Notes: a model not told the origin generated them from the sequence alone. DNA of 64,000 nucleotides from Alphaproteobacteria bacterium (GCA_964291285.2 OZ219786.1:288001-352000), one strand, 5' to 3'; positions 1 to 10,281 are shown, counted from the first letter of the stretch. Numbers and translations are program-made.

Positions 1-387
1 GATCGCCGGCTCCTGGAACACGGCGGCAGCGGAAGAGGCCGGGGCGGCGGCGGGAAAGACGGACCGCCGCCCCGGCGCGCCGGCGGACAACGGAACGGCC
101 GTGTTGTCCGAAGCCGCCGGCGTCCCGCGATCGGCGCCGCCCGCGCCCGGGGAAGCGGCGGACGGCCCGGGGCCGGGAAGGGAAGGCGGGGTTGCCGGGG
201 CCGGTGACGACGGCGAAGACGGCAACGGCGGAAGCGCGTCCCCCGTCCCCTCCGGCAACGCCGCCGCCGGTGACAGCAGCAACCCCCCGGACAGCAGGCC
301 CGCAAGCAGGGGCAGGACCCGCGGACGCGCCCGGACACCCGCCGGAGACTTGACGAAAACCCGCCCCGCGGGACAGGATGAGCCCAT
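1..387 (-). CDS. Putative secreted Pro/Ala/Ser-rich protein, runs off the window start (possibly pilus-associated)
   Basis: Manually translated open frame MGSSCPAGRVFVKSPAGVRARPRVLPLLAGLLSGGLLLSPAAALPEGTG...VFQEPAI with no stop down to position 1. GAAGGA lies 7 nt upstream of the ATG, and there is a signal-peptide-like basic/hydrophobic/AAA stretch. Not in the ORF track because it is truncated. Confidence 0.45.
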   Translation of the reverse strand, partial: MGSSCPAGRVFVKSPAGVRARPRVLPLLAGLLSGGLLLSPAAALPEGTGDALPPLPSSPSSPAPATPPSLPGPGPSAASPGAGGADRGTPAASDNTAVPLSAGAPGRRSVFPAAAPASSAAAVFQEPAI

Positions 388-814
388 GATGTCGTCCTTC
401 GACACCCTCGCCGCCGCCGAAGCGCTCCAGGACGCCGGCGCCAAGCCCGAACTCGCCAAGGCCATGGCCGCCCAGCTCAAGGCCGCGGCGAAAGCCGGCG
501 AACCCGTCACGAGACCCGAACTCGACGCCGCTCTCGGCGCCCTCAAGGCCGAACTGCTCGAACGAATCGCCGCGACCGACCAGCGGATCACATCCGTCGA
601 GAAAAACCTGATCGAGCGCATTGCGACGAGCGAAAAGGGGCTGATCGAGCGCATCGCGGCGAGCGAAAAGGGCCTGAATGACCGCATCGCCGAGACGGAA
701 CGCCGGCTGATGGACCGGACGGCCGCCCTCGTCTGGCGGCTGTTCGGCGCCATGGTCGCGCTCGCCGGCATCACCATCGCGGTGCTCGAATACCTGCGCA
801 CGCCGGCCGGATAG
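386..814 (+). CDS. DUF1640/CCDC90-like membrane-anchored coiled-coil protein
   Basis: Starts MMSSFDTL with AGGA upstream. FDTL head motif, VTRPEL neck-like motif, 11-residue coiled-coil repeats and a C-terminal TM helix (LVWRLFGAMVALAGITIAVL). The ORF-track N-extension from 101 is judged spurious. Confidence 0.75.
   Translation: MMSSFDTLAAAEALQDAGAKPELAKAMAAQLKAAAKAGEPVTRPELDAALGALKAELLERIAATDQRITSVEKNLIERIATSEKGLIERIAASEKGLNDRIAETERRLMDRTAALVWRLFGAMVALAGITIAVLEYLRTPAG
608..694 (+). repeat. 33-nt tandem repeat (hendecad coiled-coil repeat)
   Basis: ctgatcgagcgcattgcgacgagcgaaaagggg / ctgatcgagcgcatcgcggcgagcgaaaagggc / ctgaatgaccgcatcgccgag encode LIERIATSEKG / LIERIAASEKG / LNDRIAE. Confidence 0.85.
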
Positions 815-936
815 CCCCCGGCGGCCCCGGCAGCCGCAACCGGCCGGAAAATGCCGGCAGACTTGCGCGCTCCATGACCGGCGCTGACAGCCGCGAAGCG
901 AAGACGGCGGAAGGCGCGCAGCATCGCCCGGCGCCC

Positions 937-2184
937 TCAGTACCGGTCCCGTGTGAACCGTGTCCACACGGTCGGCTGCATATCGAGATCGGCGGCCAGT
1001 TCGCGCCAGCCGATGCTGCGCGGCCCCGCCGGATCGTCCCGGACCGTCATCTCCAGGCGGCCCCGCGTCCAGCGCCAGGTTCCGTCGAAATGAGGGCCTG
1101 ACACCAGGGTCCCCGCCTCGTCCACCACCGAGAACTTCCCCTCGGGATGGAACACGAAACGCCTGTCCGCATACGCCTCGCCCATGAACGCCAGCGAACG
1201 CGGATAAGGACGCGCGATGAACTCGTCCGTCAGCTGGAACGCCGGATGGCGGTGGCCCGTCGGCAGATACGGAAACGGATAGCCGACCGGATAGCGGAAC
1301 CGGACCCTCGGCCCGTCATGGATCTCGATCCACTCGCCCGCCTCGTCCGCCGTGCGCACGATGTCCCAGTAGCCGTCCGTCATGTTCCAGTGCCCGATCC
1401 GCCAGAGCTCCTCCCGGTCCCCGGCGCGCACATAGGTGAGGCCGATGCGCTTGTAGGTCATCAGCACATTGCCTTCCTGCGCCTCGAGGAAGGCCTCGAC
1501 CTCCGCCTTCGTCGTCGTCGGCCTGCCGCCCGAAGCGCCCAGGCCCGTGCGGCCGGGCGACGTCAACCGCCAACCCGGGAAGTGCCGGACCGGCGCGTCC
1601 GGGTCCTGGCGGCGCAGCTCGTCCATCTTCAGCGAGGTCTGCTTCTCGTTGACCCGGATATGCGCCGGGACCAGGTCCGGACAGGCGTCTGCCAGGGCGC
1701 GCGGCCAGCTGTCCTGGATATGGCCCGGATTGGTGAGGACAGCGCCGCCCTGCCCGTTGACTTCGGTCGCGAGCGTGCCGGTCTCCGGATCGTAGAAATG
1801 GGATGCATACAGCCGCTTCTGCGGGTCGATCTGCCACGCGACTTCGCCGCCGTTTCCCGCCATATGTGTTGACCAGCGGGTCGTGTCGTTGCCCAGCCAT
1901 TGGAACCTGCCGCCCGGGCGGCGGTGCGCGACGCACTCGTAGGCCGTCCCGTCGGCGCCGAAGACCACCCCCTGGACGACATTGCGGAACCGCCCGGTCC
2001 CCTCGACCACCTTCACCCTGTCCGCGAGCAGCCGGTTGTAGAAGTCGGCACTGTAGGGCGTATGGTTGATATAGACCTTGCTGTCGAGCTTGGCCGACTG
2101 CCCGTGCGCCGTGCAGGAGGCCAGCGCCGCGCCCGCAAGCGCCAGCGCCAGCAGTCTCCCTGCCGTGAGGTTCGACGGCTTCAT
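937..2184 (-). CDS. Lipoprotein of unknown function (415 aa)
   Basis: MKPSNLTAGRLLALALAGAALASC lipobox. ATG at 2184 overlaps the desaturase stop (ATGA). Aromatic, beta-rich mature part. Confidence 0.7.
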   Translation of the reverse strand: MKPSNLTAGRLLALALAGAALASCTAHGQSAKLDSKVYINHTPYSADFYNRLLADRVKVVEGTGRFRNVVQGVVFGADGTAYECVAHRRPGGRFQWLGNDTTRWSTHMAGNGGEVAWQIDPQKRLYASHFYDPETGTLATEVNGQGGAVLTNPGHIQDSWPRALADACPDLVPAHIRVNEKQTSLKMDELRRQDPDAPVRHFPGWRLTSPGRTGLGASGGRPTTTKAEVEAFLEAQEGNVLMTYKRIGLTYVRAGDREELWRIGHWNMTDGYWDIVRTADEAGEWIEIHDGPRVRFRYPVGYPFPYLPTGHRHPAFQLTDEFIARPYPRSLAFMGEAYADRRFVFHPEGKFSVVDEAGTLVSGPHFDGTWRWTRGRLEMTVRDDPAGPRSIGWRELAADLDMQPTVWTRFTRDRY

Positions 2185-3011
2185 GTCACTGTCTCCCTTC
2201 CGTCTCGCGATGGAGTGCGCCGGGCCCGGATGCGGGCCCCGCAAGAGGCCAGTCCGATCACGAGGCCCGCCATGTCGAGCGTCGGGTGGAACACCGCCCG
2301 GCCCGGCGCGGCGTGATGGTTGTTGTGCCAGCCCTCGCCCCAGGTGAGCAGTGCGACCGCCGGGTTGTTGCGGCTGTCGTCGCCCGTCCGGTGCGGCTGC
2401 GCCCCCCAGCGGTGGCAGGCCATCGTCACCAGCCCGCCCGCCCAGAGCGTCGCCGCCACCGGGACCGCCCAGCCGAAGACCGCCAGACGCCAGTCCAGCA
2501 CCGCCAGCAGCACAGGCCAGCCGAGCGCCAGCGGCAGGTAGTGCCGGTGCAGCCACAGGCCGAACCGGTCGCCGCGCAGCTCGCGCCGGAACGCCGCCCT
2601 GTCCGCCGGCGCGCCGTAGCTCCCGACCAGCAGCGCCCGCCAGCCGAGCCGGCCGGCCGGATGCGGGTCGCCCGCCCGGTCGGCATGGGCGTGATGGCGC
2701 CGGTGCGTCACCGCCCATGCGGGTCCGGTCCCGAAGCAGCCCATCACTCCCAGCAGGTGGAACATCACCACCGCCCGGCGCGGCGCCGCGAAACTCCGGT
2801 GCGCGAAGTAGCGGTGGAACCCGATCGACAGCCCGACGCAGCCGAAGAGGAAATAGCCGGACAGCGCGAGCGCCCACCAGGCGAGACCCGCTTCGGCGAA
2901 CGCCAGCGCCCACAGCGCGACCGCGCCGGTGACGATCTGGACCGCGCCGAAGAACATCATCGGCGCACCCGCCCTCCGGAACAGGTCCGTTCCCGCCGCC
3001 GGCGCGCTCAC
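2181..3011 (-). CDS. Membrane fatty-acid desaturase (delta9/OLE1-like)
   Basis: Three His boxes HRYFAH, HRRHH and HNNHH, the motifs DSRNN and GEGWHNNHH, and TM segments. GTG at 3011 overlaps the GNAT stop (GTGA); an alternative ATG lies near 2960. Confidence 0.88.
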   Translation of the reverse strand: MSAPAAGTDLFRRAGAPMMFFGAVQIVTGAVALWALAFAEAGLAWWALALSGYFLFGCVGLSIGFHRYFAHRSFAAPRRAVVMFHLLGVMGCFGTGPAWAVTHRRHHAHADRAGDPHPAGRLGWRALLVGSYGAPADRAAFRRELRGDRFGLWLHRHYLPLALGWPVLLAVLDWRLAVFGWAVPVAATLWAGGLVTMACHRWGAQPHRTGDDSRNNPAVALLTWGEGWHNNHHAAPGRAVFHPTLDMAGLVIGLASCGARIRARRTPSRDGRETVT

Positions 3012-3523
3012 AGCGCGAGCTCGTAGTTGCCGCCCGTCAGCCGGAAGCCGAGGCGCTTCAACAGCCTGTCGGTCCGCGCGATGTCCACGCCGGAGGCGAC
3101 ATTGACATGCAGGCGGACCGCGCCGCGTTCCCCGGCCCACCGCCGGCAGGCGTGCAGCAGCTTGATCGCCGCCAGCGACCCCCGATGCTCCGGCAGCACG
3201 TAGAAGGCGAGGATCGAGGCGCCGGGCGCGGACGAGTACCAGTGAGGCCCGACAGCCGCTGACAGCATGCCGACCGTGCGCTCGCCGCGCTCGGCCTGCA
3301 CCAGGCAATACCTGCCAGGCTTCGCGAGGCGCTCGACGACGCCCCGCCTGACAAGTTCCCCATCGAAGGGGAGCGCCTTGTCGCCCATCTCCTCATACGC
3401 GCGGCGGGCCAGGCTCACCCGCGCGGCGATATCCTCTTCGGACCGCGAGAACCGGACGGTCACGCTGCCGGGCCGGGCGTCTGCCGGGCGGGGCGCAGCG
3501 GCAACTGCCGGGGCCGCGCTCAT
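3008..3523 (-). CDS. GNAT family N-acyltransferase
   Basis: FYVLPEHRGS (motif A) and RLLKRLGF C-terminal motif. ATG at 3523 overlaps the upstream stop (ATGA). Confidence 0.85.
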   Translation of the reverse strand: MSAAPAVAAAPRPADARPGSVTVRFSRSEEDIAARVSLARRAYEEMGDKALPFDGELVRRGVVERLAKPGRYCLVQAERGERTVGMLSAAVGPHWYSSAPGASILAFYVLPEHRGSLAAIKLLHACRRWAGERGAVRLHVNVASGVDIARTDRLLKRLGFRLTGGNYELAL

Positions 3524-5367
3524 TCCCTGCGCTCCCCGACCCTGAGCGAGACGTCCCAAAACGCCCTCGGGCCATCCTTGCCGACATATTGGCCCTCGCC
3601 GAACACGGTGTTGCCGGCGACGCTTCGCACGACGCCGTCGCTCGTCAGCGCGATGGACCGGATGCCGGCCTCGTCGAGGCTGCGCAACTCGCCCGGATCG
3701 CTCTCGCCGTCCCGGTCGAGGTCCTGCCAGACCCGGAACAGGGCCCACTCCGCATCCTCGGGGTCCAACTGCCCGTCGCCGTCGGTGTCGAAATGGCGGA
3801 GGCCCTCGAGGTCCGTGCGCGCGCCCGGCACATAGGAGACGAAGCTCAACTCGTCATGCGCCGCGATCCGCCCGTCGCCGTCCTTGTCGTAGGCCAGGAA
3901 GCCGTCATCGGCGGCGGCCCAGGCCATGCGGGTGCGATAGCCATCGCCGTTGATGTCGTAGAACGCGGTCGAGTCCTCGAGCGCCACCAGCTCCACCCCG
4001 TCCCCGTCCAGGTCCAGCACGATCGGCTTGGCGCCCCCGCCACCACCATTGTGGCCGCCATTGTTGGCGCTGTCGCCCTTGCCGCTGGAGCCGCAGCAGC
4101 CCACGCTCGGATCCGTGTCGTCGTCGTCGTCTCCGGCCTCGACCCCGTCATTGTCACCATCATGTCCTCCCGGGCTCTCATATTCGGGGCCGGGCAGGAT
4201 GGGATCGGTCGGCGGCGGCTGGATGGGCGTCGGCGTCCTGGGCCCGACCGGAGGCGGATCGGTCGGCCGGGGAGGCGCGCCCGGATCGGGCGTTACCGGA
4301 TCGGGACGCCGCGGTGGGTCCTGCGGCGGAGGCGGAGGAGGCTGGCAGTTGTCCACGTTCCGCACCCACCGCCGGGCCCCGACCAGGCGCCATGTCCGCA
4401 CCACCTCCGCGCCCGGACGGACCTGGAAGTCCCGATACTGCGTGTCCTGCTCGTAATGCGAGGTGCAGCCGCCCGACCACCCCGAGGGGCAGGAGCAGGA
4501 GCCCGTGGTGCGCTGCACCGGCCCCGCATACAGCCGGATCACCGGGTCCGGGAGCGGGTCCGGGGCCGGCGCCTGCGCATACACATGCGGGCAGAGGCCG
4601 CCGGCATGGCGCCACGGGCCGCACTGCGCCCTTGCTCCGAGACCCGCCCGGCGGTCGCAGTCGCGCGGCCAGAGATGCGCCGCGTCCGGCGCCGTCGCCG
4701 CAAGGTCCCGGCCCCGCGCATCGCCCGCCCCGCGAATGTCCGTCGCCTGGATCGGAACACGCCGCGACTCGCGGAAGGTCTCCGTCGCCGAACCCGGACA
4801 GGCCACCGTCCGGAACTCCGTCTCCCAGCGGAACCCCGTCACCGTGCGCGCCGGATCGGCCACCGCCCCCACAAGCCCGACACGATCCTCCCCCAGCGAG
4901 GGAACCGACATGCAGGCCGGCAGCGACGCGTCGGCACGCCCGAGCGCGCCCGCCGCAATGCGCGTGTTCGCCAGGATCACATGCAGCCCCGCCCGGCCGC
5001 CCCGCACCGGCGCCACCTGAACCTCGCGATGGCCCCGGCCCACGCCCTTCAGCTCGTCGCTGGCCGCATGGACCGCCAGCACCCCGCCGCAATAGCGCGC
5101 CGTCAGGCCCCGCTCCGTCCAGGACCCGAGCCACCAGGCGCCGGAGGGCGGGTCCGAGGCGCCGTCCCATTCGCTCCGCCAGAGCCGGGCCGCGTCCGTC
5201 ACGCGGATGCGCTCCCCGACACTCGCGAAGGCGGTCCGGATCGCCGCCGCATGCGCCAGCGCCTCCTGGCGCCGCGTCCGGTCCGGATCGCCCGTCTGCG
5301 CCACAGCGCCGGGCGCGATCGCGGCGAGGGTCAACGCCAGCGCCGCTGCGGTTCCCGCCTGTCTCAT
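3520..5367 (-). CDS. Secreted PilV-like adhesin with Cys-containing repeats, Pro-rich linker and C-terminal Ca-binding FrpC-SPM-like domain (615 aa)
   Basis: Signal peptide MRQAGTAAALALTLAAIAPGAVAQ. Two CP-G...W...C modules and a Pro-rich linker. C-terminal PIVLDLDGDGVEL...DINGDG...DDGFLAYDKDGDG...FDTDGDG...FRVWQDLDRDGESDPGELRSL. ATGA overlap with the pilO-like gene. Confidence 0.65.
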   Translation of the reverse strand: MRQAGTAAALALTLAAIAPGAVAQTGDPDRTRRQEALAHAAAIRTAFASVGERIRVTDAARLWRSEWDGASDPPSGAWWLGSWTERGLTARYCGGVLAVHAASDELKGVGRGHREVQVAPVRGGRAGLHVILANTRIAAGALGRADASLPACMSVPSLGEDRVGLVGAVADPARTVTGFRWETEFRTVACPGSATETFRESRRVPIQATDIRGAGDARGRDLAATAPDAAHLWPRDCDRRAGLGARAQCGPWRHAGGLCPHVYAQAPAPDPLPDPVIRLYAGPVQRTTGSCSCPSGWSGGCTSHYEQDTQYRDFQVRPGAEVVRTWRLVGARRWVRNVDNCQPPPPPPQDPPRRPDPVTPDPGAPPRPTDPPPVGPRTPTPIQPPPTDPILPGPEYESPGGHDGDNDGVEAGDDDDDTDPSVGCCGSSGKGDSANNGGHNGGGGGAKPIVLDLDGDGVELVALEDSTAFYDINGDGYRTRMAWAAADDGFLAYDKDGDGRIAAHDELSFVSYVPGARTDLEGLRHFDTDGDGQLDPEDAEWALFRVWQDLDRDGESDPGELRSLDEAGIRSIALTSDGVVRSVAGNTVFGEGQYVGKDGPRAFWDVSLRVGERRE

Positions 5368-6656
5368 CCCGCACTCCCCGCCGCGGCGTCCGCGCCGCCG
5401 TCCACCGGCAGGCCCGTCAGCGCCGTGAACTCGCTCTGAAGCATCCGGAACGGGCGCGACCGCCGGCAGGCGAATACCCAGCCCCCCTCCCGGCTCCACG
5501 CCGCGGACACCACCTCCAGGCCCTCGACCGCCGTCAGCATCGCGACCGCCTCGCCCAGCGGGCGCACGGTCCGCAACTCCACCTCGACCTCCGCTCCCCA
5601 CTGCCCGTAGCCGATATCGAACCCCCGCAGCCCCAGCGCCCTGTCCAGGCGGCGGCGGAACGCGGCAGGCTCCGGCCAGGGCGCGGCCTCCGGGTCGTGG
5701 CGCGCCAGCACCGCCGGCAGCAGGCTGAACGCCGCCGCCGTTCCCGTGTTATCCAGAAGGGCGTTGCGCCAGTCTCCCAGCATGTCCTGCGCCAGAGGCA
5801 CATGCACGCGCGGGTCGAGGCCCTCGCGCAGGCCCCAGTGCACCTCCAGCACCGCCTGCCCGGACAGGCCGCCCGGCGACAGGCCGGACCGCGCCTGCAC
5901 GAAACGCGGATGGCACGCCGCCCCCTGCCGCTCCCACCCCGACATCGTGACCCGGTGCGCCTCCAGCGCCGCCCGGCAGTGCCGCAGGAACGCCCCGCTC
6001 CGCACCACCGCATCGACCATGGGCGGTTCCTCCGGCGGCGCCTCCTTCAGATGGACGAACACCAGTATGTCGTCCCGATGGTTCCAGGCCGGCCAGGCCC
6101 CGCCGCCGGCCAGCACCAGCAGCGCCGCCGCGATGCCCGCGCGCCAGGTCAGGCGCACCTTCGGCGCCTCGACCATGACCGGCAGGCCCGCCGCCGCGCC
6201 CGCAAGCGCCCCGCTCTCGACAACCGCCCCGGCCCCGAACAGCTCCGCAAGGCCCGGCGTCGCGACCACTGCCGCATCCTGGCCGCCGGCGCTGCCCAGC
6301 GCCCGGTGCGCCTGGTCAGCCGAGCGGTAGACGCTCTCCCCGCCCGGCAGGATGCGCCCGCCCGCGCTCCGCACGACCCCGACACGGTTGCCGCCGTCCT
6401 CCTCCACGAAGGCCGCCCAGGCGGCAGGCGCCCCCGCGCCGCCGGATGCCAGCACCGCCCGCAGCGCCCCGGCAAGCGGCGGCAGGCCGCCCGGCGCCTC
6501 CGCCGCCCCCAGAAACCCCGTCTGCCCGTCAAGCTCCACCATCCAGGCATGGCCGCGCTCGCGCGCCGCCCGCGCCGCACGGCCACGGGACAGCACGTCC
6601 CGCTCCCAGTCGAGACCGGCCGCAAACCGCCGCCCGCCCACCGCCAGCACGCTCAT
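5364..6656 (-). CDS. pilO: Type IVB pilus accessory protein PilO-like (PilO2)
   Basis: N-terminus MSVLAVGGRRFAAGLDW resembles PilO2 starts. Single mid-protein TM helix, 430 aa, coupled directly downstream of the secretin. Confidence 0.6.
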   Translation of the reverse strand: MSVLAVGGRRFAAGLDWERDVLSRGRAARAARERGHAWMVELDGQTGFLGAAEAPGGLPPLAGALRAVLASGGAGAPAAWAAFVEEDGGNRVGVVRSAGGRILPGGESVYRSADQAHRALGSAGGQDAAVVATPGLAELFGAGAVVESGALAGAAAGLPVMVEAPKVRLTWRAGIAAALLVLAGGGAWPAWNHRDDILVFVHLKEAPPEEPPMVDAVVRSGAFLRHCRAALEAHRVTMSGWERQGAACHPRFVQARSGLSPGGLSGQAVLEVHWGLREGLDPRVHVPLAQDMLGDWRNALLDNTGTAAAFSLLPAVLARHDPEAAPWPEPAAFRRRLDRALGLRGFDIGYGQWGAEVEVELRTVRPLGEAVAMLTAVEGLEVVSAAWSREGGWVFACRRSRPFRMLQSEFTALTGLPVDGGADAAAGSAG

Positions 6657-7898
6657 CCACCCGCCTCCCGGTCCACGCCCGCCGGTCCTGCACCGCCGCC
6701 CGCAGCCGCGACCGGAGCCGGGCCGAACCCCGCCCGCTCCGATATCCCCAGAGGCGCCCCGATCTCCGCCGTCACCAGAAGCGCCGTCTCCACACGCGCC
6801 AGGTCCGCTTTCCCACTGCCCTCCGGAAACGGCACGTCCTCGTGGACCGTCCCCGACCGGGTGCCCGTGGACGAACGGTCCCGGAAGCCCGTCAGCAGCA
6901 GCGTCTCGCCCCGCCCGATGCGCTGCGTCGCCACGATCGCGCGCCGCCCGCCCGCAGGAAGCTGGATCTCGTTGCCCGCAGAGCTGAACACCTTGAACGC
7001 CGGGCGGTCCTGGATCGTCGCCGTGATCCGCGCCAGAACCTCGTCATGCCCCACGACCCGCGCCACGAAACTCAGACCGAACCCCGACGACACCGTCCCC
7101 GGCGTCAGCTTGTACGACCGCACCCCGTCCTTGACCTCCGTGGCGACCTCCTTCAGGTAGGCCTGGTCGAACAGGTCGTAGAACTGCGCCGGGCGCCCGT
7201 TCAGCGTCGGCACGTCCACCGACAGCAGGCGCGAGGTCGTGCCGACCTTGCGGAGCGCGCTCACCGTCGCATCCAGCGTCTTCGTTCCGGCGGTCACCGG
7301 CTTTACTAACGAAATCGCGCCGCCCTGGAACCCGACCTGCAGGTTCGACCCGAACGCCTCCGGCAGCAGCCCCGTCAGACCCACCTCGTAGTCCGAGCCC
7401 CGGTCGAACCGCACCGAGTAGAGATGCACGCTCAGCGTCACCGGGCGCAGCACATGCCGGTTCACATGCTCCAGCCAGGACCGCACACGGTCCACCGCCC
7501 GCGGCAGGCCGGTCACCGTCACCGTCGAGGCCGCCGCCGAGATCGACACCCGGCCTTCGGAACCCGCGGCAGCCCAGGCCTGCGCCCCGATCTCCGACCA
7601 GGGCTCGTAGCTCATCTCCGAGGAGATCGACTGCTCCGAACTCCCCGAGGTCGCCTCGCCGCCGCTGCCCGAGGTTGTCGTCGTCACCGACCAGGTCTGG
7701 CGCCCGACCAGCGCATGCACCCCGAACACCCGCGTCTCGGAGCGCACCACCTCGACCAGCTCCGCCTCGCCGTCATACTGCCACCGGTAGCCCGCGCACT
7801 CCGTCCACGCGTCCAGCAGCCGGTCCAACGGACCTGCCCACACGCCGGCCTCGCCGGCCAGTTCGTCCTCCCAGGAGGCCAGCCAGGCCTCGCACGCG

Positions 7899-7982
7899 CC
7901 GCCCGTCGGCGCCGGCTCGCCATCCGTCGGCGCATCCGCCCCGTCCATCGGTGCATCCACGCCGTCCATCGGCGCCGGCTCG
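7899..7982 (-). repeat. Four 21-nt tandem repeats inside the secretin gene
   Basis: Encode EPAPMDG/VDAPMDG/ADAPTDG/EPAPTGG. Confidence 0.8.
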
Positions 7983-8114
7983 TTGTCCCTGTGGGCGGCT
8001 CCCTGCCACACGGCCCCGGTCAGCTGCACCCCGATGCCGGTCGCATCGGATATGCGGCGCGCCAGGACCTCGTCCCCCGGACCGTCGCCGAGCGTCACCA
8101 CGATCCCGGTCTCC

Positions 8115-9045
8115 GAGCCTGACCCAAAAAGAGTTGAGCGGTTTCAAGGGATTGTGATTCAGTTCGGTTATGCATCTGAACGGAGCCACGAATGCCCTGG
8201 ACCGAAACCGCTCGCCGGGAGTATCGGCGGGACTGCCCACGATATGCAAGCGATCTGACCGACGCTGAGTGGTCTCTGATCGAGCCCTTCATGCCGTTGC
8301 CCTGCCGTATCGGTCGCCCGCGCCAGACCGATCTGCGCGAGGTCGTAAATGCGGTGCTGTATATGGCCACGACCGGTTGTCAGTGGCGCCAGCTGCCGAA
8401 GGACTTTCCGCCGGTCTCGACGGTGCAGCGCTATTTCTACGAGTGGCGCGACAACAGGCTGTGGCAGACGATCCGGTTCCACCTGGCCGTGCAGGCGCGC
8501 GAACGCGAGGGGCGCGAGGCCCAGCCGAGCGCGGGCGTGATCGACAGCCAGACGGTGAAAACCACGGAGGCAGGCGGGGTTAGCGGCTATGACGCCGGCA
8601 AGAAGGTCAAAGGGCGCAAGCGCCACGCTGTCGTCGACACCATCGGCATGCTCTTCGGCCTCGTCGTACATGCCGCCGACGTTCAGGACCGCGACGGCGC
8701 CCCGGCCGTGCTGAAATCCATCCGCCACGCCTGCCCCTGGCTGCGTCATCTGTTCGCCGATGGCGGATATGCCGGGCCGAAACTGCGCGGCGCCCTCGAC
8801 AGGATCGGCAAGTGGACGCTCGAAATCGTCAAACGCTCCGACACCGCCAACGGCTTCGAAGTCCTCCCCGGACGATGGGTCGTCGAACGCACCTTCGCAT
8901 GGCTCGGGCGCTGCCGCAGGCTGGCAAAAGACTGGGAAAAATCCATCGCCTCAAGCGAAGCATGGATCAACATCGCCCATATCCGGCTCACAACACGCCG
9001 ACTCGCAAGGCCTTGAAAAACTTCAGCGAGTTTCGAGTCAGGCTC
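8115..9045 (+). mobile_element. IS5 family (IS1031-like group) insertion sequence, 931 bp
   Basis: Terminal IRs gagcctgacccaaaa (8115-8129) and tttcgagtcaggctc (9031-9045) match at 13/15. 3-bp target duplication TCC at 8112-8114 and 9046-9048. Confidence 0.92.
8192..9016 (+). CDS. IS5 family transposase
   Basis: YASDLTDAEW, TGCQWRQLPKDFPP, IDSQTVKT, GYDAGKKVKGRKRH, ADGGY, RWVVERTFAWL. Confidence 0.95.
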   Translation: MPWTETARREYRRDCPRYASDLTDAEWSLIEPFMPLPCRIGRPRQTDLREVVNAVLYMATTGCQWRQLPKDFPPVSTVQRYFYEWRDNRLWQTIRFHLAVQAREREGREAQPSAGVIDSQTVKTTEAGGVSGYDAGKKVKGRKRHAVVDTIGMLFGLVVHAADVQDRDGAPAVLKSIRHACPWLRHLFADGGYAGPKLRGALDRIGKWTLEIVKRSDTANGFEVLPGRWVVERTFAWLGRCRRLAKDWEKSIASSEAWINIAHIRLTTRRLARP

Positions 9046-9396
9046 TCCGACCTCAGATCGGCCGGAAGAAGGGAACGCTCCGGCGCCACCGCCGTCAGCG
9101 CAAGATACGGGTCCTTCGAGCGCGTGAGAGAGCGGAAACCCGGCCGCTCCGGACCCGGAGACCCGAGCGAATCAAGCCGGCCCTCTACCTCCGAGGCCGC
9201 CCGGTCGACCTCCTCATGATCGAGCCAGCCGCAGCCCGGCAGCGCAATGGCCGCCGCCAGCAAAACGGCCCGGACAGCCGCTCCGGAACCCGATGCGAAG
9301 CCGCTCGAACCGCCCGAAAGTCCTTGCCGCGCCGTGGTTGACAGGACCCCGAATCCCTCTCACCTTGTCTCCGAATGCGAAGGTCGGTCGGCTGCC

Positions 9397-10281
9397 AATC
9401 ATGAACATGCTGGCGAACACCGTGACGCCAAAGACGAAAATCAGCGCCAGCCCGACGGCGAAGTTCCGGTCGCGGAAAATAGCGAGGTCGATATAGGGAG
9501 ACCGCGCGGTGAGCGAATGGGCGATGAAGAGGTAAAGGCAAAGCCCGGCGATCACGGCCTCCGCAATGATCTCGGGAGAACTGAACCAGTCCTGCCGCTC
9601 GCCCCGGTCCAGGACAAGCTGGAGGCAAGCCACCCCGATGGCGAGCGTTACGAGACCGATCCAGTCGAGAGAAATGCCGCGTTTCTCGGTCTCCGGCGTG
9701 GTCATCCAGATGCCGAGAAACGCAATGCAGCCGAGCGGCACATTGATGAAGAACACATAGCGCCAGCCATAGAATTCCGTGAGCAAGGCGCCGACGGTCG
9801 GCCCCGCAACCGGCCCCAGGATCATTCCCATCGACCAGATCGACATGGCGAAGCCGTGCCGGCTGCGCGGGTAGGTGTCCAGCATGATCGCCTGGCTGAT
9901 CGGCAGCAAGGGTGCGCTGCCAAAGCCCTGCAGGGCGCGGAAAAGGACCAGCTCTTCAAGGCTGTCCGCGGATGCGCAGAGCATCGCCGTGACGGTGAAG
10001 GCGGCGATGGACCAGAGAAAGATCAACCGCCGCCCGAACTTCACGGCGAGCCAGCCGGAAATGGTCGTGCCGAGGGCCGAGGCGACGATAAAGGCCGTCA
10101 CGACCCAGCCGATCTGGTCCGGCGTCGCCGAGAGATTGCCCTGCATCGCCGGCAGGGCGACATAGGCGGTGCTCATGTTGGTCGAATGCAGCAGCGACGC
10201 TGCGAGCACCGGGATAGTGATCGTCGCGGTTTCCGCGCGTGTGAACGGGCCCGCCGCCGGGCGGTTGCGGGTCGAAAGCAC
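9397..10281 (-). pseudogene. 3'-truncated DHA2/EmrB-type MFS efflux permease
   Basis: Typical EmrB N-half (VALPAMQGNLSAT, WVVTAF, FRALQG, GPTVG, LDRGERQDWFSS, IFRDRNF). Similarity stops after ASMFMI at ~295 aa; full-length members are ~500 aa. The tail to 9214 is non-hydrophobic read-through. Confidence 0.75.

Follow-up and report, generated by a model that had tools for sequence, protein, structure and literature searches.

The 64-kb window considered here (64,000 nucleotides of the genome of an Alphaproteobacteria bacterium, GCA_964291285.2 OZ219786.1:288001-352000; G000:C2:288001-352000 in the numbering used below) opens inside a repeated element. Positions 1-9409 are the right end of a ~40-kb block (C2:257-297k) which, judged by its gene content, is a multicopy conjugative element of the IncI/Dot-Icm type with a type IVb "thin" pilus. 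The genes of interest form a four-gene insert between the positions of pilO and pilP, and encode a secreted protein, here called X, an acyltransferase of the GNAT family, a desaturase and a lipoprotein. Comparison with related loci suggests that the interchangeable tail of this secreted, pilin-like protein travels with its own lipid-type enzymes, which would be a new way of tailoring a surface adhesin. The insert contains the following features.

3520..5367, minus strand: protein X, 615 aa, with a Sec-type signal (residues 1-23, by eye), a pilin/PilM-like domain, a stalk, a linker and an SPM-like C-domain
3523..4026, minus strand: SPM-like Ca2+-binding domain, X residues 448-615 (FrpC SPM 6sjw, E 3e-25)
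4027..4029, minus strand: Lys447, directly before Pro448, at the position of the FrpC scissile Asp414 (alignment to 6sjw/6sjx); candidate acylation site
3008..3523, minus strand: GNAT of an RTX/SPM-associated subfamily, a predicted acyltransferase (PF00583, E 4e-9)
2181..2960, minus strand: membrane His-box desaturase, SCD1-like (PF00487, E 2e-14)
937..2184, minus strand: lipoprotein with lipobox LASC (by eye) and a lipocalin-like beta-barrel as its N-half

These matches bear out the GNAT, desaturase and SPM identities given in the first-pass annotation, an earlier reading of this DNA. In X, the pilin/PilM-like domain (residues ~24-170) is followed by a Cys-rich and G5-like beta stalk to residue ~345, a linker of Gly, Pro and Asp, and the SPM-like end. 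In a model of the 322 residues following the signal (predicted local distance difference test, pLDDT, 75.5), the best fold match of the head is PilM 3eoi (Z 6.9, root-mean-square deviation 4.4, 110 aligned residues), followed by many type IV pilins at Z 3-4; these scores are no more than suggestive of a pilin-like head. Foldseek gave no match at E<=0.001 for the models of X and the lipoprotein, and the ESM Atlas gave no usable match for X and only sub-0.9 matches for the lipoprotein. By eye, X does not carry a class III pilin signal, as its N-terminus is Sec-like (GAVA followed by QTGD) and the next helix is polar. No RTX repeats were matched in X, and no HlyB/HlyD was found among the element genes scanned.

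The SPM-like domain aligns with FrpC 6sjw over the EF-hand-like loops and both Trp residues of the W451/W519 pair, with D478 in a gap; Ca2+-binding loops and this Trp pair are among the FrpC SPM features described in PMC7078468. The scissile Asp-Pro of FrpC-type SPMs is absent from X. FrpC cleavage is described in the same source as proceeding via an Asp anhydride at Asp-Pro, and a FrpC-like clip-and-link adhesin was rejected as a candidate because the catalytic Asp is missing from the X SPM. A Lys-Pro junction is found instead in all 4 genome copies. At position -1, the 29 SPM-bearing X homologues have K (25), G (3) or Y (1) and never D, and Lys is present at -1 or -2 in 28 of the 29, compared with 1.4% Lys in their linkers. 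The SPM homologues reported as tested in PMC12538545 are cleaving ones only.

Homologues sharing the X N-domain differ in their tails. Of the 57 found, 29 have an SPM at the end and 14 a CFI-box domain, the remaining 14 having neither (some possibly partial). Tail type is scattered over the X N-domain tree, a quick tree of 57 rows, with 22 changes where shuffling gives a mean of 24.3. The CFI tail is CFI-box-CTERM (NCBIfam NF041770, above cut-off in 3/3 proteins tested), and CFI forms start with GG, GS, SA or SG before C[FLY][LF]TT. Both tail types begin at a sharp Gly-rich junction (GGK before P; GG before CFLTTA). In one homologue (L243, P0245; 944 aa), the place of a tail domain at the end is taken by many Cys/Trp-rich repeats.

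All 37 genomes of the order were searched with the X N-domain, without selection on the GNAT, giving 25 loci in 12 genomes of one genus only (SPM 13, CFI 4, no tail domain 6, unreadable 2). A GNAT gene follows 12/12 SPM forms with readable downstream DNA (one truncated) versus 0/10 others, the thirteenth SPM form, at a contig end, being excluded from the count; with three near-identical copies counted once, the figures are 10/10 and 0/10. Polyprenyl synthase genes follow 3/4 CFI forms, two of them with an S-adenosylmethionine (SAM) methyltransferase, and none of 18 others. The six X forms without a tail domain run directly into the lipoprotein gene. The CFI domain had one match in 301 phylum genomes, and its link with polyprenyl synthase is known from within the genus only.

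Covariation of this kind could partly be explained by linkage alone. Under this explanation, blocks taken up from RTX or other loci (SPM + GNAT; CFI + prenyl synthase) are shuffled via a recombination hotspot between the X N-domain and the lipoprotein, and the enzymes are useful cargo unrelated to X or the pilus. Repeats and insertion sequences abound in the host genome, and the slot adjoining the X/enzyme module also collects unrelated small genes. Additionally, the GNATs of the element form a clade whose sister group comes from RTX loci, for example L044 and L059 (support 89), as fits one capture; by this tree, the element's SPM + GNAT look like a single capture from an RTX-type locus. However, GNAT-SPM pairing is kept across gene orders, spacings up to ~7 kb and several families, and there are two independent tail types, each with lipid-type enzymes. 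A further point against linkage is that all three enzymes tested are, by their ratios of non-synonymous to synonymous substitution (0.12-0.51 in 46/46 pairs), under purifying selection. We therefore regard linkage alone as unlikely.

The slot occupied here by the desaturase has two kinds of occupant. A desaturase is found in the 4 copies in this genome, L026 and L032, and a radical-SAM enzyme in 6 genome loci and 5 metagenome contigs, making 11/16 filled-slot loci when near-identical copies are counted once; L030 has a GNAT without either. The closest solved structures are SCD1 for the desaturase (4ymk, E 8e-13, boxes HxxxxH, HxxHH and HxxHH aligned) and the lipid-coupling GDGT-MAS/Tes for the radical-SAM enzyme (E 1e-18), so that the closest solved relatives of both act on lipid chains. 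In the GNAT tree, one branch (Shimodaira-Hasegawa-like approximate likelihood ratio test 91) separates the sequences of all 11 radical-SAM loci from the rest, while the X, PilO and lipoprotein trees mix both types. Thus, the GNAT and its partner appear to be exchanged as a pair. No member of the radical-SAM subfamily was found in 251 class genomes at E<=1e-25, a sample without a positive control, and the desaturase had one match outside the genus in 251 class genomes. The combination of genes noted in the first pass is conserved. GNAT and desaturase recur with the secretin and X in two other genomes (L026, L032) and in the divergent copy of the block in this genome, which is contrary to the outcome named in the first pass as refuting its reading. 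Its proposal that these two enzymes acyl-modify the exported protein is also the best reading here, with the enzymes under purifying selection, except that the desaturase is optional and mostly replaced by the radical-SAM enzyme.

The lipoprotein gene follows X in nearly all loci, irrespective of X tail type. In its model (pLDDT 91.3), the N-half matches ToxS (top) and lipocalins at Z 7-7.9, within the common-fold range, and no clear fold match was obtained for the C-half. The protein has about 130 homologues, and the 120 of them that were listed are all unnamed or hypothetical. Complex prediction for the X N-domain with the lipoprotein scored 0.00, which lends no support and is not evidence either way. 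In L029/L038 (P0339), a deletion joins the N-half of the radical-SAM enzyme in frame to the C-part of the lipoprotein.

A barrel of this kind, with ToxS as top match, would suit enzymes whose product is a lipid or signal in free form, such as an N-acyl amine with an unsaturated chain or an isoprenoid that has been methylated. This product would be bound non-covalently by the lipoprotein or the X C-domain and would regulate or assist the pilus, X itself remaining unmodified. Acyl-CoA or lipids are the more natural substrates of membrane desaturases, and the methyltransferase matches include the prenyl-diphosphate methyltransferases BezA, C6-FPP MT and GPP MT, although not as the best ones. A free product nevertheless seems improbable to us, as the lipoprotein is present where the enzymes are absent (L238, L240, L241, L243, L244, L247), and such a product would account neither for the conserved Lys nor for the association of the GNAT with Lys-Pro SPMs in RTX loci.

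Outside the genus, free-living Proteobacteria have this GNAT family in their RTX/type I secretion loci, in some cases alongside HlyC, and distant relatives occur in podophage morphogenesis modules, beside head-tail connector genes. SPM domains lie near outside GNATs in 7/9 genome loci, 7/74 metagenome loci (many short or phage-like) and 3/5 plasmid regions examined. Lys-Pro is present in 14 of the 17 outside GNAT-selected loci with a readable SPM, in gene orders differing from that of the element. In a set selected on SPM (40 loci, 35 genomes, from a 401-genome class sample with 8 further matches outside the set; some of the regions are cut by contig ends and one junction is unreadable), Lys-Pro is found in 3/3 loci with a GNAT versus 3/37 without (Fisher p 0.002, a test in which kinship is ignored and which is inflated by it). 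GNAT (DQL45_RS22300, beside the gene of a Ca-binding protein) and Lys-Pro SPM also occur together on plasmid pDE of the laboratory strain Cereibacter sphaeroides 2.4.1, which makes the main claim of this analysis open to a direct test. Source names for some homologues include Holophagales, Acidobacteria and Gammaproteobacteria metagenome-assembled genomes, possibly through transfer or mis-binning. Viral contigs gave no match to the SPM or to the alignments of GNAT and lipoprotein. SP6 gp28, an "acetyltransferase" encoded before the head-tail connector (L264:3977-4438), is a distant relative of the GNAT, and 217 phage records match.

Asp is a minority at -1 among the alphaproteobacterial SPM-like domains sampled (L197-L236), where Ser, Lys, Pro, Ala, Phe, Trp, Thr, Cys, Tyr and Ile also occur; therefore, many of these domains may never cleave. 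This bears on a further explanation, in which the GNAT is a short-chain lysine acetyltransferase controlling non-canonical self-processing at Lys-Pro (blocking or priming cleavage and cross-linking), and the desaturase or radical-SAM enzyme modifies the X peptide, not a lipid. Such control would fit the recurrence of the GNAT family beside autoprocessing domains (SPM; Hint in L262 and L263, with a Hint annotation at L263), the sharp Gly-rich start of both tail types, and a 2-oxoglutarate-Fe(II) oxygenase gene after the GNAT in L046. Besides the scarcity of Asp-Pro, the chemistry is unfavourable: the Asp anhydride that FrpC cleavage needs (PMC7078468) cannot be formed by Lys. Overall, self-processing control appears distinctly improbable, more so than a free lipid or linkage alone. 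L200, L213 and L263 have Hint-like C-terminal motifs (ending in VHN) directly or shortly before a Lys-Pro SPM, presumably as tandem autoprocessing modules. On a Paracoccus plasmid (L262:10514-19500), a related GNAT is flanked on one side by a Hint-domain protein and on the other by a type I polyketide synthase.

The reading preferred here is that cognate enzymes lipidate or otherwise tailor the X tail: the lysine at the junction would be acylated by the GNAT, the chain would be shaped by the desaturase or radical-SAM enzyme, and an isoprenoid would serve the CFI-box form. We give this reading somewhat less than an even chance. Gene content, tail swapping, covariation, the conserved Lys and purifying selection are the parts of it that were observed directly. 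Between pilO and pilP, the element would carry an exchangeable surface module. X would be exported, probably by Sec, and would present a head that is pilin-like and a beta stalk, either at the pilus machinery or through it. Its last part would be a replaceable C-domain, each kind of which is accompanied by dedicated tailoring enzymes. With an SPM tail, the cytoplasmic GNAT would move an acyl group onto the Gly-Lys that immediately precedes this domain, and the acyl chain would be shaped by the partner enzyme, whether desaturase or Tes-like radical SAM. In the CFI form, polyprenyl synthase, with or without the methyltransferase, would provide an isoprenoid, probably for the first Cys of the domain. 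The lipid would tether X to a membrane (its own, the recipient's or the host's) or adjust its adhesion, and either this lipid or X itself may be bound by the lipocalin-like lipoprotein. What we infer is thus the route of export, the transfer of an acyl group and its substrate, the anchoring and a mating role of X. Precedent for lysine acylation comes from CdiC, whose acylation target is a Lys in the binding domain of CdiA, and from HlyA, whose acylation sites are Gly-Lys (both as described in PMC8510554). The more general form of this reading is a modular lipid-tailoring of a pilus-associated adhesin, in which two unrelated C-terminal domains, the Lys-Pro SPM and the Cys-first CFI-box, serve as alternative modules for accepting lipid or for self-processing, each with cognate enzymes (GNAT + desaturase/Tes-like radical SAM; polyprenyl synthase + methyltransferase), and is held more tentatively, as doubtful on balance.

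Several points weigh against lipidation of the tail. The acylated lysine of CdiA was not its Gly-Lys one, according to the account in PMC8510554. A lipidated X chain would need to cross the inner membrane. The GNAT is outside the HlyC family, matching PF00583/PF13508 and not PF02794, and 3 outside loci have HlyC too. The presence of podophage acetyltransferases in the wider GNAT family makes short-chain acetylation equally plausible. The junction is not invariant, as one X homologue has Tyr-Pro, one outside GNAT locus has Phe-Pro (L050) and two have only Arg-Pro before the locus end. One CFI form (L240) is without enzymes; with the six X forms that lack a C-domain, this indicates that the tail is dispensable. 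Since the GNAT gene adjoins the SPM coding region, exchange of whole blocks between conserved flanks would make the two covary even if nothing in their function linked them. Finally, the fold scores of X and the lipoprotein (Z 6.9-7.9) are in a range that possibly means only a common arrangement.

Comparison with known systems separates a known part, the IncI-like chassis with its thin pilus (described in PMC9045228 and PMC4471445), from a novel part, the four-gene insert. Like IncI PilV, as described in PMC9045228, X is an adhesin-like protein with a constant N-part and a variable C-terminus. However, X is unlike the one PilV-like gene compared, has a Sec-type signal and is located between pilO and pilP; unlike the IncI shufflon, it varies between elements, not by inversion, and brings its own enzymes. 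The SPM domain and the adjacent lipoprotein gene recall Neisseria FrpC/FrpD, where FrpD is described as binding the FrpC N-domain (PMC5233953). In contrast to FrpC, X has Lys-Pro and not Asp-Pro, lacks RTX repeats and a type I exporter, and carries its SPM C-terminally on a protein of 615 aa, whereas PMC7078468 describes the domain as confined to large RTX proteins; the fold matches listed for the lipoprotein do not include FrpD. With HlyC/CyaC and the CdiC-lipidated class IV CdiA, the insert shares a dedicated acyltransferase gene beside a secreted Gly-Lys protein, and in the HlyC/CdiC systems the lipid is proposed to aid membrane binding (in the account of PMC8510554). It differs in that the enzyme is a PF00583 GNAT with a co-inherited desaturase or radical-SAM partner, and in that its function is predicted here from genes. 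CFI-box-CTERM, a term not found in an open-access literature search, is here interchangeable with SPM and linked to polyprenyl synthase. The cassette and the tail-enzyme pairing were not found described in the open-access literature (supplements aside), in agreement with the first-pass statement that no such combination was known, and database family notes or subscription papers could hold a description.

There is a real chance that this is a new protein-lipidation system. If so, conjugative elements would vary a surface adhesin by swapping its tail together with lipidating enzymes, and functions would be offered for non-Asp SPM-like domains, for the CFI-box-CTERM domain, whose function would be bacterial protein prenylation, and for the RTX-associated GNAT subfamily, which would be a widespread class acylating RTX/SPM proteins independently of HlyC.

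The ~40-kb block is found again at C2:494-533.5k and C5:50-89k, with 94-100% identity over most of its length, and as a divergent copy at C3:2075-2119k. To the left of the window, the insert is followed by pilP-, pilQ-, pilR-, two pilS-, two pilV- and pilU-like genes. The pilus-assembly profile matches are an ATPase (T2SSE, 3e-41), a platform protein (T2SSF, 1.5e-4), a major pilin (Bundlin, 1e-4), a prepilin peptidase (Peptidase_A24, 1.4e-3) and PilV-type proteins (Shufflon_N, 3e-4 and 4e-3), several being below curated cut-offs. The two pilS-like major pilin genes are in tandem and ~90% identical (G000:C2:283586-284741). Further leftward are DotD, DotC/TraI, DotB/TraJ, IcmT/TraK, two IcmL, IcmK, TraQ and DotA/TraY, and the copy at C2:457-533k also encodes a coupling protein, a TrwC relaxase-helicase, a large serine recombinase and ParA/ParB. 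Apart from TraQ, the Dot/Icm/Tra genes, with the coupling protein and relaxase, form the MPF-I/Dot-Icm conjugation set, and the assignment to an IncI/Dot-Icm-type conjugative element is made on this basis together with the pil-like genes. The same Dot/Icm/Tra genes, with the secretin and PilQ/R/S/V-like genes, resemble the IncI1/IncI2 transfer regions (R64, TP114); this element differs from IncI plasmids in being chromosomal and multicopy, with a TrwC relaxase and a serine recombinase.

In R64-type pil operons, pilN-pilO are followed by pilP/Q/R/S/T/U/V. The first-pass annotation noted that lipid- or acyl-modifying enzymes do not follow pilN-pilO there, and proposed that the genes may form an undescribed appendage system. 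A new appendage replacing pilP-V is not supported and was rejected: pilP-V-like genes follow to the left of the window, and the type IVb pilus cluster in which the enzymes form part of an insert looks canonical otherwise. The window copy is itself damaged, with pilN split, left similarity stopping at a multicopy repeat, and the right side fused to a truncated EmrB-type gene. Its remaining features are as follows.

1..21, minus strand: start of a pilP-like gene (TIGR03021, E 0.042 only)
386..814, plus strand: small coiled-coil protein in the variable slot between lipoprotein and pilP, on the opposite strand to the module
5364..6656, minus strand: PilO-position protein, 430 aa, with a central hydrophobic segment, conserved after pilN
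6653..8114, minus strand: 3' piece of the pilN secretin (TIGR02520 PilN, E 7.7e-42, below the curated cut-off)
8115..9045, plus strand: IS5-family insertion sequence of 931 bp inside pilN, with a 3-bp TCC duplication
9046..9263, minus strand: 5' piece of pilN, with lipobox LPGC (by eye), Cys codon 9231-9233 and nearest in-frame start TTG 9263
9410..10281, minus strand: EmrB-type major facilitator superfamily (MFS) gene, truncated at ~9409, outside the element (TIGR00711, positions 3-278 of 485)

The secretin identity stands, as supported by TIGR02520 and by the matches of an uninterrupted copy to plasmid PilN proteins, but the secretin had been read as a single gene and is in fact split by the insertion sequence. 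Its transposase (8192-9016, plus strand; NF033580, E 2.3e-79) has 13 identical copies in the genome, and contigs of 3/3 runs contain the joint without the insertion (8109 to 9044). The 5' piece and the beginning of the uninterrupted copy (G000:C2:533.4k) share 100% identity. The PilO-like call agrees with the position of the gene after pilN, but the protein has no Pfam, NCBIfam, PDB or plasmid match; PF06864 was found in 0/5 genomes and also in 0/14 controls, and nothing in the PLSDB plasmids matched X or the PilO-like protein.

The five 4-nt overlaps reported in the first pass are present, ATGA at 6653-6656, 5364-5367, 3520-3523 and 2181-2184 and GTGA at 3008-3011. Translational coupling is not a special feature of these genes, as such overlaps occur at 11/32 junctions of the element's other genes. 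GTGA coupling of the desaturase was rejected: the overlap is in the sequence, but homology begins only at ATG 2960, and the GTGA-led extension is found in only two near-identical copies among the 5 desaturase junctions compared. Thus, the desaturase most likely starts at ATG 2960, not at the overlapping GTG.

Similarity to the other element copies stops at 9409. The frame of the truncated EmrB-type gene (9214-10281, minus strand) continues into the element, overlapping the pilN start, and tblastn with the C-terminus of a paralogue gave no match for its C-terminal half. A contig of run X1 bridges this junction without differences, and a contig of run X2 departs from the window sequence there. 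Among the relatives compared, there is no conserved ATG ahead of the pilN lipobox, and the start codon of pilN is uncertain. TTGACA at 9338-9343 on the plus strand (TGTCAA on the gene strand), ~80 nt upstream of the candidate pilN start, is present in the window copy and in 12/12 relatives compared; it points away from pilN, and therefore may be a divergent promoter or regulator site. The pilN of the divergent copy is likewise broken, and orphan fragments of desaturase and pilN lie beside insertion sequences at C3:869.3-869.6k, C2:1047.7-1049.0k, C3:1388.1-1388.3k and C3:2118.9-2119.2k.

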